Of a stretch of 64,000 nt of DNA, positions 11,957-59,794 are shown one piece after another. The position numbers were made by a program, and so were the translations under genes. The DNA is from Candidatus Uhrbacteria bacterium (GTDB lineage Bacteria > Patescibacteriota > Patescibacteriia > UBA9934 > GWF2-40-263): NCBI GenBank assembly GCA_014239775.1, contig JAAZYG010000005.1:6746-70745 (forward strand). The letters run 5' to 3'. Under the pieces are notes generated by a model, which was not told where the DNA came from, did not search any database, and worked only from the letters and a program-made list of their open reading frames with translations. Positions within the stretch are counted from its first letter, which is position 1; each line of letters begins with the position of its first letter.

Positions 11957-12940
11957 TTAAGTTAATAAAATATTTTCAAGAATCAAATGTGTGTTTACAT
12001 TGCTTTTTGCAACAATGCGAGCACGTCTAATTTCTTGAAGTAGGTTATATAAATCAATTATTTTAAATTTATTTGTTAATTTGTTAATATCGTCTTTATT
12101 ATTTTTATAAACACACAAATCATTGCAACCAATCTTATTCAACAACACATCTCTTAACACAGACTCCCACCTATCAAGAACTTCATGTAATTTTTTATTT
12201 TTATCAGTCTCTTGCTTTGTAATAATTTCTGTAACAGATTTAAACTTACGCGCTACCGAAGATTGAAACAAATGAGATACAGAAGAAACAACTATATCTA
12301 AATTTGCACGAAAAGATCCGTCCTTAATATATGATATTGCTAAACCTGGTCTGCCAAATGCTAAATCTGAAAATAAATCTGCTTGTTTTTTTCCAATACC
12401 ACTTTTTATAAGAGAGCTACTAATAAGATCACTTGATACTGTATACAAATTAATAACCTGACAACGAGAAACTATTGTTGCAGGCAAATCACTTATTGAA
12501 GTTGCACGTAAAATTAATAATGCTTTTCCATTAGGTTCTTCTAAGGTTTTCAACAAAGCATTCGAAGCACTCACAGATAATTTATCAGCCTCCTTTATAA
12601 AACCTACTTTATAACTACTTGCAAGAGGACTCATTGCCATCTTTTTATTAAACTCACGTATCTGCTCTACTGATATGTTTTGCTTTAACTTATCTTTGTC
12701 AGAAACTGTAGGTAATCTTTTAACAATAGAAACATCTGGTAATGATTCTAGACGATTTTGTGTATTTAATACATTGCGAATCAATTGCGTAATAACAGTT
12801 GTTTTTCCAGTATTTTTAGGACCAACAAAAAGCATACTATGTGGTAACTGATCGTTTTGAACCAATCTTGTAATGATCTCTTGAGCTGTTTTGTGTCCAA
12901 TTATTCCTGAAAATACGCTCATACTAGCATAGTATATCAC
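11957..12940 (-). CDS. holB: DNA polymerase III delta-prime subunit
   Basis: AAA+ Walker A LFVGPKNTGKTT, then the sensor and arm regions typical of the clamp-loader delta-prime subunit. Its size fits. Confidence 0.7.
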   Translation of the reverse strand: MIYYASMSVFSGIIGHKTAQEIITRLVQNDQLPHSMLFVGPKNTGKTTVITQLIRNVLNTQNRLESLPDVSIVKRLPTVSDKDKLKQNISVEQIREFNKKMAMSPLASSYKVGFIKEADKLSVSASNALLKTLEEPNGKALLILRATSISDLPATIVSRCQVINLYTVSSDLISSSLIKSGIGKKQADLFSDLAFGRPGLAISYIKDGSFRANLDIVVSSVSHLFQSSVARKFKSVTEIITKQETDKNKKLHEVLDRWESVLRDVLLNKIGCNDLCVYKNNKDDINKLTNKFKIIDLYNLLQEIRRARIVAKSNVNTHLILENILLT

Positions 12941-13038
12941 ACTTTATAATCTAAAACATTCATTACTTCTTGGTTATAATACATATGTATATATTACGAT
13001 TCGATCTTATTTGTCATAAATAACCAACAATTCTAATC

Positions 13039-13072
13039 ATCTTTATTTAGCTGAACTTAGCTAAATAAAGAT
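13039..13072. promoter_or_regulatory. perfect 14-bp-stem palindrome (operator or bidirectional terminator)
   Basis: atctttatttagct-gaactt-agctaaataaagat. It lies about 100 bp upstream of the holB start and 19 bp upstream of a plus-strand -35 box. Confidence 0.4.
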
Positions 13073-13090
13073 ATTTCTAAATTGTAGGTC

Positions 13091-13119
13091 TTGACAAAAC
13101 TGACAAAAACTGTTATTAT
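13091..13119 (+). promoter_or_regulatory. sigma70-like promoter pointing into the 13.1-15.1 kb island
   Basis: TTGACA (13091-13096), 17-nt spacer, TATTAT (13114-13119). Confidence 0.45.
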
Positions 13120-13599
13120 TGTCATGTTGATAATCGGCATGTAAATCATTTATTTGAAAATGCCATACAATTGAATACTGGGGAGAGACCAGTGCTATCT
13201 GTGATTGTACAGATGCTCAATCATATAAAATCGATTTTTGTATGTGTCTTTACCTTGATACATTCAACAATCGGTTTTTTATTAATTAAGATTACGGAGG
13301 AGAGAGTGTACCCGTCCCTTCAAATCCGAAAGGAAGAGATGGGCGGTGGATACCAAATGGAATAACTGGGTTTACTCACTTAATCCATACGCAAGGAATC
13401 CGTTATTCATACCAACTCTTGAGTAGGTCACTGAATTTTTTCCCTCCGTGTTCTGAGTTAATAAAACCAAAAAAACTCTATTTATCTACTGTAGATAAAT
13501 ACTTTAACAAGGCAAGCGAACCAATTGAGATGCTTTGAGCTCTTGGTGACCGCATTGATGTGCATATTGACACATCTAGTCTTTTTCTCAGAGCGCTCC

Positions 13600-13826
13600 C
13601 CCTGATGGATGGGTATTTATATACCCATCCATCAGGGCCATTATTAATTTAACACAACCCCTTGCCCGATCGTAATCTTATTTACAAATAAGACATCTAC
13701 GATCGGGTTTCTGTCATAATACGCAATTTATTTGTGTGTTATGAAGGAAATCACATAAAAATAATCTGATCTGGAATGAAGTAAATTATCAACTACTTCC
13801 TTCCAGATCAGATCCCCATGGTGGGG
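13600..13826 (+). repeat. array of four long perfect inverted repeats (hairpins) in the leader of the foreign ORF
   Basis: 13600-13637 has a 17-bp stem ccctgatggatgggtat / atacccatccatcaggg. 13665-13707 has a 10-bp stem cccgatcgta / tacgatcggg with a nested 8-bp stem tcttattt / aaataaga, followed by TTTCTGT. 13764-13813 has a 13-bp stem atctgatctggaa / ttccagatcagat with inner gaagta / tacttc pairing. 13814-13826 is cccca-tgg-tgggg. Confidence 0.6.
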
Positions 13827-13845
13827 CTTTGAAAAGGACAGCACT

Positions 13846-15123
13846 GTGCAAATAAGCACAACACCATCTCAGAAAAGGAGAATTTTAATGCTGCAAAACA
13901 TTTTTGAACCCCCCACCCTCATGGGAATGCAATTTTGTATTCCTGAAAACGACTCGCGTCCGGGCCTGCCGGGCAAGATCGAGGTTCTAGGTCGCAAGGC
14001 CCAGAAGTACTTCACAGGAAAGATAAACTTCCAAGAAAGCCATTTCAACAAAGGTGTTGCCGTCAGTCTGTGCATTCAGGCTGGTCAGGACTGGACCAAG
14101 TTGGGAAGCATTTCTGCGCTGAAAAAGCGTGGTAATGAGCTCCGGCTGATCTCTGAAGCCAGCGTGATTGCTGCTTCTACTGGTCTTCCGGTTGAATGGC
14201 TCGTTAAAGGAACTGAGTCTGTCGAAGGACTGCGAATGATCAAAAAGGCGGTTGAACTCGCTCGAAAGGTCAATCGTAATCACATGTTCTGGAGCAGTGT
14301 AATGACTCCCAGTCAAGTGATTGACCAGGAAATGAACGTCCTTTTGGCTCTGGAAGATGCCCTTATCACCGCACTCAAGACTAACCCCAAGAGTGATGAT
14401 GAGAAGGAAGATCTCAAGCAGAGTACAACGACTGTTGATCTGCGTGACATGGATATGGAGGCTTTCATCGAAGGTCTAGTTCCTGTACCTTCAGAACTTC
14501 CGAAGTTGCCTAGTACCAGGTCTGAATCCGACACCAAAGTCAAGGCAAAAACCTGTACTGACAACAATTGTGTGATCGTGAAGCGGATTGAACTGCATGA
14601 ACCTGGAACCTTGGTGGTTATTAATAACGAACTTCGTTATGTTTGCTGCGGCAAGCATGGCAAATGCCGTTCTTTGATGACACCTGAGGTCGCAAGAGTG
14701 ACTGCAGATGAAAGTAGGCTTCGACGTCAGTACCGGATCCCTGCTTGGAAGCAGATTGTGACTGAAGACTTTCAGTCTGATCGCCACACGGTCTACTGTC
14801 CGAGTTGTTCAAAATTCATCCTCAAGGATGGGTCAAAGACACTCGCACAATGGATCACTTCTGCTGAAGAGACTGAGAGAGATCTTTCTCGAAATGGTAG
14901 GCAAATCGCACGTAGCTTGGGATACAACAATCCCTTGAACAACGACGCCTACCTTGAGCTGGCATTGGCAGAGCCAGGACTGCGTGCTAACGGAATCGTT
15001 GGCCCCAATAAGACCCGAAAAGGTCCAATGGGAATTCGCGCAGCCTTGGCAATCTCCAAGACCAACCCGAATCGTCGTAACGGCAAAAACCGTAGCAACA
15101 ATCGGAATGCTCAACGCTCCTAA
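13846..15123 (+). CDS. hypothetical Cys-rich protein with a zinc-ribbon-like C-terminal half and a basic Arg/Asn-rich tail, in a compositionally foreign ORF (probable start 13888, 411 aa)
   Basis: Long ORF whose G+C is visibly far above the flanks (about half by eye, against roughly 30%). An AAGGAG SD sits 7 nt before the ATG at 13888. Cys pairs CTDNNC, CCGKHGKC and CPSC are present, and the C-terminal tail is KTNPNRRNGKNRSNNRNAQRS. It lacks the Lys/Asn/Ile bias of the host proteins. Confidence 0.5.
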   Translation: MQISTTPSQKRRILMLQNIFEPPTLMGMQFCIPENDSRPGLPGKIEVLGRKAQKYFTGKINFQESHFNKGVAVSLCIQAGQDWTKLGSISALKKRGNELRLISEASVIAASTGLPVEWLVKGTESVEGLRMIKKAVELARKVNRNHMFWSSVMTPSQVIDQEMNVLLALEDALITALKTNPKSDDEKEDLKQSTTTVDLRDMDMEAFIEGLVPVPSELPKLPSTRSESDTKVKAKTCTDNNCVIVKRIELHEPGTLVVINNELRYVCCGKHGKCRSLMTPEVARVTADESRLRRQYRIPAWKQIVTEDFQSDRHTVYCPSCSKFILKDGSKTLAQWITSAEETERDLSRNGRQIARSLGYNNPLNNDAYLELALAEPGLRANGIVGPNKTRKGPMGIRAALAISKTNPNRRNGKNRSNNRNAQRS

Positions 15124-15228
15124 AAAGAGCACTTGTTAATCAATAAAACGATTAACACTTGGGGAACGTAGAAACACTCTTTCTGCGTTCCCCACTCATT
15201 AAAGGTCATAAGACAACTTGTGCTCTTT
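15124..15228 (+). ncRNA. structured 3' element immediately after the foreign ORF (nested stems)
   Basis: An outer pairing aaagagcac (15124-15132) with gtgctcttt (15220-15228) encloses the hairpins gttaatc-aataaaac-gattaac and ggggaacg-(17 nt)-cgttcccc. Confidence 0.3.
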
Positions 15229-15476
15229 AATGGGTATAGAATTCTCTCCCCAAGAGACCAAAATAACATCCTAATAAGGATGTTATTTTGATATAAAAAG
15301 AACCCGGAAAAAACCGAGTTCTTCTACTGGCACGACAAACGCACCCTCTCTCTTCATATCTACTTATGTAGACAAAAAACATTAACACATACACAAACTT
15401 TGTCAAGTATCTTAAACAAAGACAATAAAGATAACTAATAATCTCTATAAAAAAAGGCTTTTTATGTTTAAATTAC

Positions 15477-15505
15477 TTGACAAATATCATATTTTTTGTT
15501 AATCT
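15477..15505 (+). promoter_or_regulatory. sigma70-like promoter
   Basis: TTGACA (15477-15482), 17-nt spacer, TAATCT (15500-15505). Confidence 0.5.
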
Positions 15506-15609
15506 AATCTTACAATTCAATCATGTCTATAAAAATAGATATACTACAACTGACTAGAGTGTGTGTTATGTAAATACAAAACCTCACTCTTTAGTATAGA
15601 GGAGGCAAA

Positions 15610-15762
15610 ATGCCTGGAAAGATAGAGGGAAATAAAGCAAACACGCTTAAACAGACGTGTATTACTAGAACTGCACTAAACTTCTGTAATTTTCGTCAAA
15701 CTGACATAAGTCGTAATCCACGACGTTTTCAACCTTGTTACATTTGTCCAGGCGGTGGTTAG
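15610..15762 (+). CDS. 50-aa basic Cys4 small protein or peptide (absent from the ORF track)
   Basis: GGAGG SD 4 nt before the ATG. The ORF is MPGKIEGNKANTLKQTCITRTALNFCNFRQTDISRNPRRFQPCYICPGGG with a C-x8-C...C-x2-C pattern. It has its own promoter upstream and a terminator right after. Confidence 0.35.
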   Translation: MPGKIEGNKANTLKQTCITRTALNFCNFRQTDISRNPRRFQPCYICPGGG

Positions 15763-15803
15763 CTACTTTAACCAAACCTGTCGACTAAAAGTCATCTTAT
15801 CTA

Positions 15804-15827
15804 CGGCCACTAACTCACGGCCGTTTT
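15804..15827 (+). terminator. intrinsic terminator of the small-peptide unit
   Basis: cggcc-actaactcac-ggccg followed by TTTT. It is oriented for plus-strand transcripts and abuts the stop of the convergent trmB-like gene. Confidence 0.55.
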
Positions 15828-15830
15828 ATG

Positions 15831-16607
15831 TTACTCAAATTTTTGTTTCTTATAATTTTCAGCACCTCTCCATGCTAATTCAAACAAAGCTTTTACAGTA
15901 TCTGCAATTTCCTTACTGGTAATGACCACTGACAAAATAGCTGATTTATATGAAAATAAAAATATATGATTATCTCTCACAACAATACTTCCATGAATCG
16001 GAAACTCACTTGCAGGTATAATTCGTATCTCCCCTTTTCCCATGTGAGGTAATGATACATCTGATTCATCTTCAACAATTGCAAGAACCCTGTGTTCAGT
16101 ATCGCTAGTTCTTAAAGTTGCATGGTGAGCATCTCTGTCGTGCATTACTTCAATTGTATTTTGAACATCCTCAAAAGGAAATATTTCAAAAAATTCACCA
16201 TCTAATTTTTCAAACATTGAACGAACTGTCTTAATCCCTTCAATTCCTTCAAGATATCTGATTTGCGGCTTTGTACCTTCTGCATTAAAAAGAGCCATTA
16301 ACATTGGTAATGTTTTATCTAACTCTGCTCTTTTTTCTGCTATCGCCCTATTTTGAGTATCTAAAATTGCACCAAGTCTTTCTGGAGACTCAGCTGCATA
16401 AAAACGCTTCTTACCTTTTACAAAAGTTGACATAAGACCACGTCCTGACAAAGATTCTATCATGACGTAAGTAGTTGCTCTGTTTACTTTTGATTTATGT
16501 GATATGTCTTGAACAGGTGAAGGACCCAACTCTAAAGCCGCCAGGTACACTGACGCCTCTTTATCAGAGAGTCCTAAATGTTTTAATTCATTGATTAGCT
16601 CATCCAT
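15831..16607 (-). CDS. TrmB-family transcriptional regulator
   Basis: The N-terminal wHTH LGLSDKEASVYLAALELGPSPVQDIS is typical of TrmB, followed by a C-terminal effector domain. Confidence 0.65.
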   Translation of the reverse strand: MDELINELKHLGLSDKEASVYLAALELGPSPVQDISHKSKVNRATTYVMIESLSGRGLMSTFVKGKKRFYAAESPERLGAILDTQNRAIAEKRAELDKTLPMLMALFNAEGTKPQIRYLEGIEGIKTVRSMFEKLDGEFFEIFPFEDVQNTIEVMHDRDAHHATLRTSDTEHRVLAIVEDESDVSLPHMGKGEIRIIPASEFPIHGSIVVRDNHIFLFSYKSAILSVVITSKEIADTVKALFELAWRGAENYKKQKFE

Positions 16608-29285: not shown

Positions 29286-29500
29286 AGTATTTTGTATATT
29301 TATCGACCTTTAAATAAAAAACTGCCGATTACATACCGCAGTGTTCTAAGAAAACTTTTCAGAATCTCATTTACCTCGACAGGACTTATTTCATTAATGA
29401 AAACCTGTTGTCTACGGCGGATATGTTCATTACTAATAGCAATGTAGCATCTCCAATCTTTAGTTCAAAAAGAGTATATATAAAACATATATGATTGTCA

Positions 29501-29528
29501 ATAAAAAAAGCGACTAGTTTAGTCGCTT
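29501..29528 (-). terminator. intrinsic terminator overlapping the stop of the zinc-ribbon repeat gene
   Basis: The minus strand reads aagcgacta-aac-tagtcgctt followed by TTTTTTT. Confidence 0.5.
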
Positions 29529-30100
29529 AGAGTCCAATTGTCTGGTCTACCGCATCTCCTCCACTGCCGGTAATGTTTAAGACAATAACCTTTTGAGTCG
29601 TGTATGTTTTTACATCCAGCAACCTTGCAACCAACATGCTTTATGCGTGGTGGTGGTGTCCAGTTGTCTGGTCTTCCGTGATCCCGCCAATTATCGAAAT
29701 GCTTCCTGCAACAACCTTTTGTTCTATGAGGATTTATACATCCATCTATCTTACAACCAACATGCTTTATGCATGGTGGTGGTGGCGTCCAGTTGTCTGG
29801 TCTTCCGTGATCCCGCCACTGCTGGTAATGCTTCCTGCAATAACCTTTTGATTGGTGAGGATTAATGCATCCAGCAACCTTGCAACCAACATGCTTTATG
29901 CGTGGTGGTGGTGGTGGCGTCCAGTTGTCTGGTCTACCACTTTTCAACCACTGCTGGTAATGCTTATTGCAATAACCTTTTGCACTACGCACTTGATCAC
30001 ACACACCAACCTTACAAAATCGAATCATTAAATAAAACCTTGTTGCACAAAAGTAACATATACAACGAAAAATATTAGAATAAAAAACCAACATTGTCAA
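29519..30100 (-). CDS. tandem-repeat zinc-ribbon protein (4 copies of a ~42-aa C-x4-C-x8-C-x2-H module with PPPP linkers); likely true start at the internal MIRF (30028)
   Basis: Four repeats CK[VI].GC......KGYC.KHY.QWR..GRPDNWTPPPP. The module resembles the zinc-binding GxCxxHYxRWxRxG motif found N-terminal in some phage and actinobacterial HNH proteins (from memory, not verified). Confidence 0.55.
   Translation of the reverse strand: MTMLVFYSNIFRCICYFCATRFYLMIRFCKVGVCDQVRSAKGYCNKHYQQWLKSGRPDNWTPPPPPRIKHVGCKVAGCINPHQSKGYCRKHYQQWRDHGRPDNWTPPPPCIKHVGCKIDGCINPHRTKGCCRKHFDNWRDHGRPDNWTPPPRIKHVGCKVAGCKNIHDSKGYCLKHYRQWRRCGRPDNWTLSD
29590..29960. repeat. imperfect tandem DNA repeats of roughly 126-129 bp encoding the protein repeats
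   Basis: Recurrent blocks aaccaacatgctttatgcgtggtggtgg...ccagttgtctggtcttccgtgatcccgcca. The region is more G+C-rich than its surroundings. Confidence 0.7.
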
Positions 30101-58339: not shown

Positions 58340-59794
58340 TTAAACATCGTCAGCAATGTGAATATAATGATCTCTCAATACCTTTGCAATGCAAGCTGTA
58401 AGCTTTTTTGCATAAGGAATATGAAGAAATTCATTAGGCCCGTGTGCATTTGCACCTGGCCCTAACACACCAGTAATCACAAACTGTGATTGAGGGAACT
58501 TATCATGAAGCATTTTCATAAATGGAATTGTTCCACCTTCACCCATATACAAAGCTTTTTCTTCAAAAAAAGCCATTGAAGCACCCTGAATAGATGATTC
58601 GAGCCAAGAAGCAAGCGTTGGAGCATGCCACCCAGGCCTTGCAGTACCAGTAAAGGTCACTTTTGCATGAATGAGTTCATGGTTTTCAAGCATGAACTTC
58701 ACTTCCCTATATGCAACTTCTGGATCCAAAGTTGGTGGGATTCGAATAGACAACTTTAACTCTGTAAATGGTCTTAATACATTTCCAGCATCCTTAATTG
58801 CTGGAATACCACCAACACCAGTTACCGACATGGCCGGACCCCATGTTCTTGCAAGAACAAGATCCGTAAGTTCATCTGACTCGATGTCAGGTGAATTATG
58901 TGCCCATTGAAACCGCTCATACAAAGCATGTCCAATTGTCTGTGCTGCATCTTGTGCTTGCTCGCGACGCTCTTCAGGAATATCAACACACAAAAAATCA
59001 CTCATGTGTTTTTCAAATACACAACCATTTGTGCTTTCAATCCTATCCAATGCACTCCTAATGATTCGGAAGCTGGATTCAACAATGCCACTTGCATCAC
59101 CCGAATGAACACCTTCCTCGAGCACATCAACACGCAATGTACCTATAACCAAACCTCGCAATGAGCTTGTAAGCCACAACTGATCATAATTACCTGCCCC
59201 AGAATCAAGACAAATAACCAAATCTGGTTCGCCAATGCGATCAGACAAGTGATCAAGATAAAAAGGAAGGTCTGGACTACCAGACTCTTCACCTGTTTCA
59301 ATGAGTATAACGCAACGAGCATGCGATATGTTTTGTTTTTGAAGTGCCAAAACAGCTGTCAAACTTGCAAAAACAGAATAACCATCATCTGCCCCACCGC
59401 GTCCATATAACCGCTCATCACCTTTATCATCAACGATGATCTTTGGTGTCCACGGGCCAAGACCGCGCTCTGCGTCCCAACCAACCATTTCTGGTTGCTT
59501 GTCTAGATGTCCGTACATCAGCACGGTTGCATCAGAATCACCTGGAATCTCCAACAACAAAATAGGTGTACGACCATCAATGTCAATAACCTCAACACTA
59601 ACATGCTTGGGCGCATGCGCACGACACCAATTTTCTGCTAATTCTACAACCTTATGCACATGACCATTTGACCTCCATTGAGCATCAAAAGCCTTGCTTT
59701 TTGCTGGAATTGCAATATATTCCTTAAGTGTTTTTAAAATTTTCTCATCCCAGAATTTATTCACCCAATCTAATAACAATACAGTGTTCATCAC
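58340..59794 (-). CDS. M20-family metallopeptidase (dipeptidase/ArgE/DapE-like)
   Basis: HLDKQP, GRGGADDGY, IETGEESG, and a C-terminal His in a GPGANAHGPNE context. Confidence 0.65.
   Translation of the reverse strand: MMNTVLLLDWVNKFWDEKILKTLKEYIAIPAKSKAFDAQWRSNGHVHKVVELAENWCRAHAPKHVSVEVIDIDGRTPILLLEIPGDSDATVLMYGHLDKQPEMVGWDAERGLGPWTPKIIVDDKGDERLYGRGGADDGYSVFASLTAVLALQKQNISHARCVILIETGEESGSPDLPFYLDHLSDRIGEPDLVICLDSGAGNYDQLWLTSSLRGLVIGTLRVDVLEEGVHSGDASGIVESSFRIIRSALDRIESTNGCVFEKHMSDFLCVDIPEERREQAQDAAQTIGHALYERFQWAHNSPDIESDELTDLVLARTWGPAMSVTGVGGIPAIKDAGNVLRPFTELKLSIRIPPTLDPEVAYREVKFMLENHELIHAKVTFTGTARPGWHAPTLASWLESSIQGASMAFFEEKALYMGEGGTIPFMKMLHDKFPQSQFVITGVLGPGANAHGPNEFLHIPYAKKLTACIAKVLRDHYIHIADDV

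Follow-up and report, generated by a model that had tools for sequence, protein, structure and literature searches.

A G+C-rich, RNA-structured island between the holB and TrmB genes of Uhrbacteria-like bacteria, possibly an RNA-centred operon with an orphan protein

The window analysed here is a stretch of 64,000 nucleotides (nt) from a Candidatus Uhrbacteria bacterium (contig JAAZYG010000005.1, positions 6,746 to 70,745 of the forward strand), and the subject is a 411-amino-acid (411-aa) open reading frame (ORF) lying in it between a holB-like gene and a gene for a TrmB-family regulator. An earlier note on this DNA, made from the letters alone, had described the ORF as a compositionally foreign, mobile or RNA-associated module. 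The explanation that we favour, tentatively and a little short of calling it probable, is that the ORF serves as main cistron in a lineage-specific, RNA-centred operon (the 'holB-trmB island') which is fixed in the chromosome of Uhrbacteria-like candidate-phyla-radiation bacteria. Its descriptive part, that is the RNA architecture, the fixed locus and the excess of G+C and of structure, is held with high confidence. One conserved sigma-70 promoter stands ahead of a stretch of about 2.2 kb which is richer in G+C and more structured than its surroundings. That the 411-aa protein binds the RNA of its own transcript is possible but doubtful. The features of the island and its two flanking genes are as follows.

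13091-13119, plus strand: promoter TTGACA-N17-(TG)TATTAT, with 11 of 12 consensus matches plus the TG extension
13128-13285, plus strand: attenuator-like leader, with an order of elements common to 8 lineages
13180, plus strand: GGGGAGAGA, a position within the purine box of the leader
13286-13461, plus strand: R1, four-way-junction RNA of 176 nt with 7 helices (covariance model)
13462-13804, plus strand: hairpin-dense spacer (hairpin search, folding and comparison with contig L001)
13805-13887, plus strand: R2, a module of the 5' untranslated region (5'UTR), recurring before 10 cistrons in 7 loci
13888-15123, plus strand: 411-aa orphan ORF, coding, G+C 48.8%
15124-15257, plus strand: 3'UTR module (folding and recurrence in relatives)
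15259-15290, plus strand: terminal 14-bp hairpin with a U-rich 3' arm, presumed operon terminator
11957-12940, minus strand: holB-like gene (DNA polymerase III delta'), left flank, gene start facing the island
15831-16607, minus strand: TrmB-family regulator, right flank, gene stop facing the island

Composition and inheritance of the locus

The G+C content of the window is 34% (0.342), and almost every gene in it lies on the minus strand. Between the start of holB and the stop of TrmB there are 2.9 kb, which hold the 411-aa ORF as a single plus-strand ORF, and the island occurs once within the window. The G+C of about 50% that had been judged by eye for this ORF was close to the measured 48.8%; the value is the maximum among all 1236-nt stretches of the window (z = 5.0). 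The G+C at third codon positions (GC3) is 0.51, much above the 0.19-0.24 of five neighbouring genes. The ORF is truly coding, because its substitutions relative to the copy on contig L001 (81% identical) fall on codon positions 1, 2 and 3 in the numbers 74, 39 and 125 and all indels are multiples of three.

Does the composition indicate a recent arrival? Loci were gathered from the contigs of relatives and from matches to a DNA pattern of R1. All loci with enough flanking sequence have a common layout: a BNR-repeat protein, holB, the island on the opposite strand, TrmB, a GT4 glycosyltransferase and MreB. This was seen in the window, L006 (the same as L013 and L019), L009 (labelled Candidatus Uhrbacteria), L010, L014, L021, L023 and L003. 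In every lineage measured (500-nt blocks), the G+C of the island is 10-25 points above that of its own flanks and tracks the host.

Window: island 0.48-0.49, flank 0.34
L006: island 0.63, flank 0.40
L009: island 0.63-0.67, flank 0.41
L014: island 0.60-0.66, flank 0.50
L021: island 0.61-0.69, flank 0.49
L023: island 0.67-0.72, flank 0.56
L003: island 0.73-0.75, flank 0.55

The same holds at third codon positions: island ORFs have a GC3 of 0.51-0.96 and host genes one of 0.19-0.66, an excess of 28-55 points in every locus measured. Between the window and L006 the identity is 94% for MreB, 60% for TrmB, 54% for the BNR-repeat protein, 47% for GT4, 39% for holB and 25% for the island ORF. In the closest hosts, L021 and L023 (holB 61% identical), the island ORFs are among the closest too (43%), so that the divergence of the ORF is roughly congruent with that of host genes. 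Nothing similar to the island was found in phage, plasmid and IMG/VR collections. Judged from these comparisons, the island appears to have descended vertically at a fixed chromosomal site in at least eight diverged lineages and not to be mobile. The suggestion of mobility was thus not borne out: there is one copy in the window, no match among phages, plasmids or IMG/VR, the same synteny everywhere and a divergence which roughly follows the hosts. The term 'compositionally foreign' holds for the deviation itself but not for a recent transfer. Recent transfer cannot explain the composition, because a vertically inherited locus is always above its host and the excess is constant at the locus in every lineage.

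The coding content turns over between lineages while the locus itself is inherited vertically. The main 411-aa family is found in the window, L001-L006, L021, L023 and L024 and is absent from L009 and L014. Accessory family A comprises proteins of 146 aa (L004) and 139 aa (L024), and accessory family B proteins of 185 aa (L006), 158 aa (L021) and 209 aa (L023). Several ORFs for hydrophobic peptides of 38-64 aa lie 3' of R1 in relatives, including L004, L006 and L009. Neither the accessory proteins nor the small peptides match any family, and no ORF of integrase size was found in any island. By this comparison, the accessory ORFs and small peptides were lost or never gained in the lineage of the window and L001.

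Some of the contigs need a remark. The BNR-holB-promoter-R1 layout is also present in L010 (CAYJVQ010000021.1), which is labelled 'uncultured Gammaproteobacteria'; its holB and BNR-repeat proteins are 42% and 52% identical to those of the window, and it is probably a mis-binned contig. The Logan contigs L001, L004, L022 and L024 (2.2-3.9 kb) span little beyond the island. A high abundance of the RNA could be the cause, should the runs be metatranscriptomes; breaks of the assembly at the G+C boundary could be another. We considered whether the ends of the 2185-nt contig L001 are the ends of an element and rejected this: host-like A+T-rich sequence and the promoter are still inside it, and its ends adjoin palindromes that break assembly. 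Terminal inverted repeats of a transposon were rejected likewise, as the repeat has 10 nt only and excludes the conserved leader, and no target duplication is seen.

RNA structure in the coding sequences

Is the excess of G+C accompanied by an excess of RNA structure? The mean local folding energy of 12 island coding sequences was compared with that of synonymous-codon shuffles, giving z from -1.1 to -5.5 with a mean of -3.3. The same calculation for 13 host genes gives a mean z of -0.25, and the difference between island and host is significant (Mann-Whitney p = 9e-5). The 411-aa ORF of the window itself is more structured than its synonymous shuffles with z = -5.0. Note that this evidence is for extra structure and not yet for specific conserved helices within the ORF.

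Promoter and leader

The TTGACA-N17-TATTAT promoter at 13091 and the AAGGAG Shine-Dalgarno (SD) signal proposed earlier were both confirmed in place. The promoter is the sole strong plus-strand match in 12800-15900, about 800 nt 5' of the ORF, and the SD signal lies at 13875-13880, 7 nt 5' of the ATG. A TCTTGACAA box with a TG-extended -10 is found at the same place after holB in L001, L006, L009, L010, L014, L021 and L023.

The leader begins with a variable 5' hairpin. Next come the purine box CUGGGGAGAGAC, at 13178-13189, and two further hairpins, first a short one and then a long one; the latter (about 13228-13277) has the loop UCUUUACC and a U-run at 13275-13280. Across lineages the purine box takes the form yGGG(G)AGAGAG, and the long hairpin has 17-25 bp with an A-run on one side and a U-run on the other. 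The sequence of its stem varies between lineages with the pairing kept, and in each of the eight lineages its pyrimidine loop (CUCUUUCC-like) complements the purine box. Taken together, the promoter, the box and the long terminator hairpin with its complementary loop appear to form the layout of a transcription attenuator.

The region 13128-13887 folds at -257.9 kcal/mol against -171.9 +/- 8.5 for dinucleotide shuffles (z = -10.2), and the region 15124-15295 beyond the ORF at -70.8 against -28.2 +/- 3.8 (z = -11.3). Both fold far better than their shuffled controls, the check that had been proposed for them. The flanking structure, on which the description as an RNA-associated module was based, is thus real, and it is conserved and co-occurs with the ORF in other genomes.

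A four-way-junction RNA without an Rfam match

R1 has the conserved elements CGGAGGAGAGAG, CAAAUGG, CCAUACGCA, a UUCG loop, GGUCACUG and CCUCCG. Its asymmetric internal loop (AA / ACGCA) is invariant, as is one G.U pair. With a covariance model made from four sequences, 13 copies were detected in 10 loci; they score 65-196 bits, against at most 35 bits on the opposite strand. In the alignment of the 13 copies, which was itself fitted to the model, 96.2% of the cells pair and compensatory changes are seen at 36 of the 54 pairs; in slid controls the share that pairs is 34-49%, and none of the shuffles attains the observed pairing or compensation. In an independent MAFFT alignment of the four sequences, RNAalifold already gives compensatory changes at 21 of the 54 pairs. 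There are 1-3 copies per locus: one in the window, two in L009 and three in L014 (two of them in tandem).

At the gathering threshold R1 matches none of the 4227 models of Rfam 15, and relaxed searches (E up to 10 and 0.5) gave only sub-threshold chance matches to microRNA or small-RNA hairpins. As candidates, tmRNA, RNase P, 6S RNA, signal recognition particle RNA, group I and group II introns, hammerhead, twister and GIR1 were rejected, with no Rfam match and with their core motifs absent by eye.

The exact DNA pattern of R1 served to find loci, and most of its matches are chance, about 8 being expected in the genome collection by estimate. The matches L007, L008, L011, L012, L015-L018 and L020 failed the covariance model and were discarded. 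At 7173-7271 of L006 the 5' part of R1 occurs in duplicate beside a run of N, apparently an artefact of scaffolding in the public assembly and not a second copy of R1.

Spacer, R2 and the 3'UTR

The leader hairpins pointed out earlier are all present in the spacer, namely 13479-13501 (11 bp, perfect), 13600-13637 (17 bp, perfect), 13665-13707 and 13764-13813 (20 nt, 95%), besides one at 13557-13576 followed by a U-run and a conserved block at 13505-13560. Relative to L001, the hairpin 13600-13637 stays paired through three double changes and 13764-13813 through one. The stretch from R1 to R2, put at 420 nt, is non-coding: no credible small ORF is found in the spacer of the window, where the only candidate frame is broken by a 4-nt indel in L001.

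R2 sits 5' of the main ORF and of several accessory ORFs. Its general form is a CCCC-loop-GGGG hairpin with a covarying base, GAAAGG, a second hairpin, GACUUC and the SD signal; in the window these are the hairpin CCCCAUGGUGGGG (13814-13826) with an extended base, GAAAAGG, the second hairpin (about 13845-13860) and AAGGAG. Compensatory changes occur at 5 of the 11 pairs of the first hairpin, and the second, read directly, changes in sequence with its pairing kept.

The 3'UTR contains hairpins at 15134-15157, 15161-15193 (GGGGAACG...CGUUCCCC) and 15194-15235 (CAUUAAAG/CUUUAAUG). Relative to L001, the second has one compensatory change; the third persists in L001, and distant loci have hairpins corresponding to it. 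Next, within a small hairpin at 15243-15257, comes the pyrimidine box UCUCUCCCCA (15243-15252), its ...CCCCA ending at 15252. A GGGGACG...CGUCCCC hairpin, a CCAAAG...CUUUGG hairpin and CUCUyyCCC(C)AA recur in L003, L004, L021, L023 and L024; the pyrimidine box is also present in L006 and L014, with a variant form (CTCTCCCTCA) in L009. In every locus read that far, the box is followed by a hairpin plus U-run. The nested stem that had been proposed for this region did not survive: AAAGAGCAC and GTGCTCTTT are perfectly complementary, yet they are unused in the minimum-energy fold and two of their pairs are broken in L001. Since the outer pairing is unused or broken and the third hairpin is kept, the 3' element is a row of hairpins and not a nest.

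The purine box of the leader and the pyrimidine box of the 3'UTR are complementary. The length of the G-run equals that of the C-run in the window, L006 and L014 (4 and 4) and in L021 (3 and 3), which is suggestive of 5'-3' pairing of the transcript. The pyrimidine box can also pair locally with GGAAGGGA of the 3'UTR in L003, L004, L021 and L024; L023 has no GGAAGGGA.

The islands of relatives also contain a conserved noncoding inter-cistron motif, GAGCCAAGAGGAAGCAGAGCCUCCA..GUCG.GAAGACAAC, at L004 1287, L006 9084 and L024 1271 and 3070; it is absent from the window.

The 411-aa protein

The absence of a recognisable protein family was upheld: the protein has no match in Pfam, PHROGs, NCBIfam, PADLOC and the PDB sequence set, and no fold match in any library searched, including BFVD. 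Among 5.8 billion clustered proteins there are two close relatives, with 94% and 76% identity. An exhaustive HMMER scan of 1.84 billion representatives gave ten clusters at E <= 0.001, of which P0001 is 94% identical and the other nine 24-33%. A profile search of a word-indexed database added no further family members, and no relatives came to light when GTDB genomes, IMG/VR and JGI metagenomes were scanned with protein patterns.

In a 12-sequence alignment the only invariant residues are G35, R36, G56, P239, G240, C253, G258, C260 and C304, with C307 nearly so. There is no invariant Asp, Glu, His, Ser or Tyr. The lack of Asp, Glu and His argues against a nuclease or polymerase, and a recombinase looks unlikely because neither Ser nor Tyr is invariant. 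An HNH-type nuclease was ruled out, as His257 is not conserved. As for the three Cys pairs noticed earlier, C253/C260 and C304/C307 are conserved; the remaining one, CTDNNC, is already lost in the 76%-identical homologue.

Structure prediction by AlphaFold was useless with an input of three sequences (pLDDT 38); with 12 sequences the mean pLDDT is 69, and 75-89 in the domains. The model has a helical N-domain (about 20-165; motif RPGLPGxxExLGR), a disordered linker (166-235), a beta-hairpin with C253/C260, the N-terminus of a helix with C304/C307, further helices and a basic tail of Arg and Asn, which is found in most homologues. The four cysteines C253, C260, C304 and C307 are predicted to form a zinc finger of treble-clef-like arrangement. 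The protein was taken as a nucleic-acid binder because it has no candidate catalytic residues and combines the zinc finger with the basic tail.

A 474-aa protein in the island of L009 (4282-5706) shares with the family Cys pairs, an Arg/Asn-rich tail and a short 'GL/V..EWL....G...L.A' stretch. Its membership was not established, as the local match by hhalign is weak (E 0.023, probability 2%); the protein is perhaps a very remote member of the family, or else an analogue.

A working model and its rivals

How might such an island work? The stretch of about 2.2 kb would presumably be one transcript starting from 13091 and comprising the leader, R1, R2, the ORF and the 3'UTR. Transcription would be gated at the leader terminator with regulated read-through, as in an attenuator or riboswitch. 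The 411-aa protein may act on the operon's own RNA, either by repressing translation at R2 or by forming a ribonucleoprotein (RNP) with R1, and selection for RNA structure along the whole transcript would keep G+C high, synonymous sites included.

Several points weigh against this model. R1 is also present in islands without the 411-aa family (L009 and L014), and is therefore independent of that protein. The zinc finger and basic tail would suit a DNA-binding regulator equally, and the structure model is of medium confidence (pLDDT 69). One host gene, holB of L021, also has more structure than its synonymous shuffles (z = -3.1), and base pairs within the ORF are weakly conserved between the window and L001, where 9 of 22 double changes still pair against 2 of 17 in slid controls. 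We know of no precedent in bacterial protein genes for RNA-structure selection causing a GC3 excess of 30-50 points. It should also be noticed that we infer all of the transcript ends, the terminator read-through and the RNA binding.

The likeliest of the rivals, though unlikely in itself, is ordinary cis-regulation. Here the leader, R1 or both would be a riboswitch or protein-binding attenuator of a mundane lineage-specific gene, the remaining hairpins would be terminators and stabilisers, and the G+C excess would be incidental. A promoter with a conserved box and a long terminator hairpin of complementary loop is indeed a typical attenuator layout; R1 is aptamer-like in its multi-helix junction and invariant asymmetric internal loop (AA / ACGCA), and the tandem copies in L014 recall some tandem riboswitches. 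However, R1 stands 3' of the leader terminator rather than before it, no expression platform adjoins it, and the next ORF follows at anything from about 60 to 420 nt. The downstream genes differ between lineages and have no metabolic annotation. What is more, this explanation leaves the GC3 excess and the extra structure of the coding sequences unexplained.

Decidedly unlikely in our judgement is an integrative element of high G+C, perhaps a phage satellite or the remnant of a cryptic prophage, that carries RNA modules and repeatedly entered one site or was exchanged there, for example by homologous recombination through the conserved flanks. It would account for a GC3 far from host values, for island proteins which are all orphans, for a variable gene content (the main family, accessory families A and B and small membrane peptides), and for a 10-nt inverted repeat, TGGGGAGAGA / TCTCTCCCCA, near both ends. 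Yet no integrase, transposase, direct repeats or target duplication accompany the repeat, and the promoter and leader lie outside it and are equally conserved. The single copy in the window, the absence from phage, plasmid and IMG/VR collections and the rough congruence of ORF and host divergence also oppose it, and exchange among these hosts would not yield a G+C which is above the host and yet tracks it.

Could the RNA itself be the product? It would be a large functional, self-packaged or exported RNA, with ORFs encoding accessory or nucleoprotein components and with ends which processing might turn into 5'-GGGG...CCCC(A)-3', after the manner of RNA replicons. We regard this as improbable. 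The structure excess does run through the coding sequences of 12 island ORFs, the UTR or operator hairpins before each cistron resemble those of small RNA-virus genomes, and the purine and pyrimidine boxes are complementary with matched G-run and C-run lengths in the window, L006, L014 and L021. But the island has no polymerase of any kind, the boxes lie away from the predicted transcript ends, and in L003, L004, L021 and L024 the pyrimidine box can pair locally with GGAAGGGA. Still a little less probable is that the island is a DNA-launched, virus-genome-like RNA which forms an RNP with its own non-enzymatic zinc-finger nucleoprotein. Its transcript would be G+C-rich and highly structured, with R1 as scaffold, an operator hairpin ahead of every cistron and the complementary GGGG / CCCC(A) boxes. 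If that were true, the RNP could be a domesticated remnant of an RNA element, or a particle or cargo RNA that is stabilised, packaged or passed to their host cells by these episymbiotic bacteria, and RNA-structure selection rather than DNA origin would explain the permanent GC3 excess.

Finally, a TnpB/IscB-like or novel transposon nuclease with a guide-type RNA in the flanking structures, to which the earlier note had likened parts of the locus, is hardly credible: the Cys pairs, basic tail and single ORF flanked by structured RNA are a likeness of layout only, there is no RuvC, HNH or OrfB profile match, no fold match, no invariant Asp, Glu or His and no tandem array, the supposed RuvC-III-like stretch 'ERDLSRNGRQIA' is not conserved in distant homologues, an ordinary terminator follows the 3' hairpins and the locus is single-copy and fixed, so that this reading is refuted as far as sequence and predicted fold can show.

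Relation to known systems

By analogy, the island would work most like an autoregulated structured operon leader, and looks most like the orphan G+C-rich RNAs of A+T-rich genomes. Autoregulated messages such as the L10 leader (29306-29435 of the window) or the operator hairpin of the MS2 coat protein likewise have a hairpin module just 5' of the SD signal, as R2 is here; the apparent nucleic-acid binder and the promoter-proximal terminator hairpin are further likenesses. The island differs in having several unrelated modules over 2.2 kb, with R1 apart from any SD signal or terminator, and in that its protein is of an unknown family whose binding is conjectural. R1 resembles orphan RNAs of the OLE, GOLLD, ROOL and raiA type in being G+C-rich, covarying, multi-helix and lineage-restricted and in lying in a long 'intergenic' region of a low-G+C genome; unlike them it matches no Rfam 15 model, is embedded in a protein-coding operon and has 1-3 copies per locus.

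The other likenesses are more partial. In the TnpB and IscB systems with omega RNA (IS200/IS605), too, one ORF of about 400 aa carries Cys pairs and adjoins a structured RNA, but the fixed, single-copy island is without RuvC or HNH motif, OrfB zinc-ribbon profile, insertion-sequence ends or conserved acidic residues. With hok/sok mRNAs, relatives share small hydrophobic-peptide ORFs after a long structured 5' region and a possible 5'-3' fold-back of the boxes, but the island transcript would be 2-4 kb with large ORFs; no hok-like small membrane-peptide ORF exists in 13100-13900 of the window, and no antisense RNA gene was identified at the island, looked for by promoter scan only. RNA replicons (Leviviricetes, narnaviruses) have structured coding regions, operator-like hairpins before cistrons, GGGG / CCCC(A) boxes and a G+C near 50% whatever the host. 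The island, in contrast, is chromosomal DNA behind a sigma-70 promoter, its boxes are internal to the predicted transcript, and it has no RNA-dependent RNA polymerase, with no Pfam, PHROG or BFVD match and no conserved acidic motif. A TIGR-Tas or CRISPR-like array was not found either: there are no tandem repeats and no Pfam, PADLOC or NCBIfam match. Unlike the attC sites of integron cassette arrays, the inter-cistron modules of the island are conserved in sequence.

The literature searched gave no description of the locus and nothing on the source samples, and we rate the island as lying outside the known kinds, on a basis that is computational throughout. For two of its components we found no counterpart described elsewhere, a 176-nt four-way-junction RNA with very strong covariation that is absent from Rfam 15, and an orphan family with a predicted zinc finger, which amounts to about a dozen clusters in 1.84 billion representative proteins. 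The weightiest novelty is a vertically inherited locus which stands permanently above its own genome in G+C and whose coding sequences have excess RNA structure. Such a permanent excess makes 'compositionally foreign' a matter distinct from 'horizontally acquired', and suggests that RNA structure is under selection over the entire operon. The pattern is familiar from RNA viruses, and we are aware of no example among the chromosomal genes of bacteria. Bacteria of the candidate phyla are very small, have mostly escaped cultivation and are believed to live on other cells; in them, a conserved system centred on RNA offers metatranscriptomics and RNA biochemistry a concrete target.

Other features around the island

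Between the island and TrmB there is a separate ORF of 50 aa (15610-15762, plus strand), with a promoter-like TTGACA at 15477 and a terminator hairpin at about 15803-15830. Its C-terminus, ...NPRRFQPCYICPGGG, is kept as ...P(H/N)MHC(PGGS/GSYGS) in ORFs of 42-88 aa in L006, L009 and L021. It has no family match and could be a small Cys-containing peptide or precursor peptide.

Other G+C peaks of the window lie at 29501-30000 (0.45), adjoining the L10 leader and ribosomal genes, and at 58501-59500 (0.42-0.44), both below the value of the ORF. Between the start of holB and the island promoter there is a perfect 14-bp palindromic hairpin (13039-13072), which is kept in L001 and has a similar counterpart in L006. 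The L001 contig starts inside this palindrome because assembly probably breaks there.

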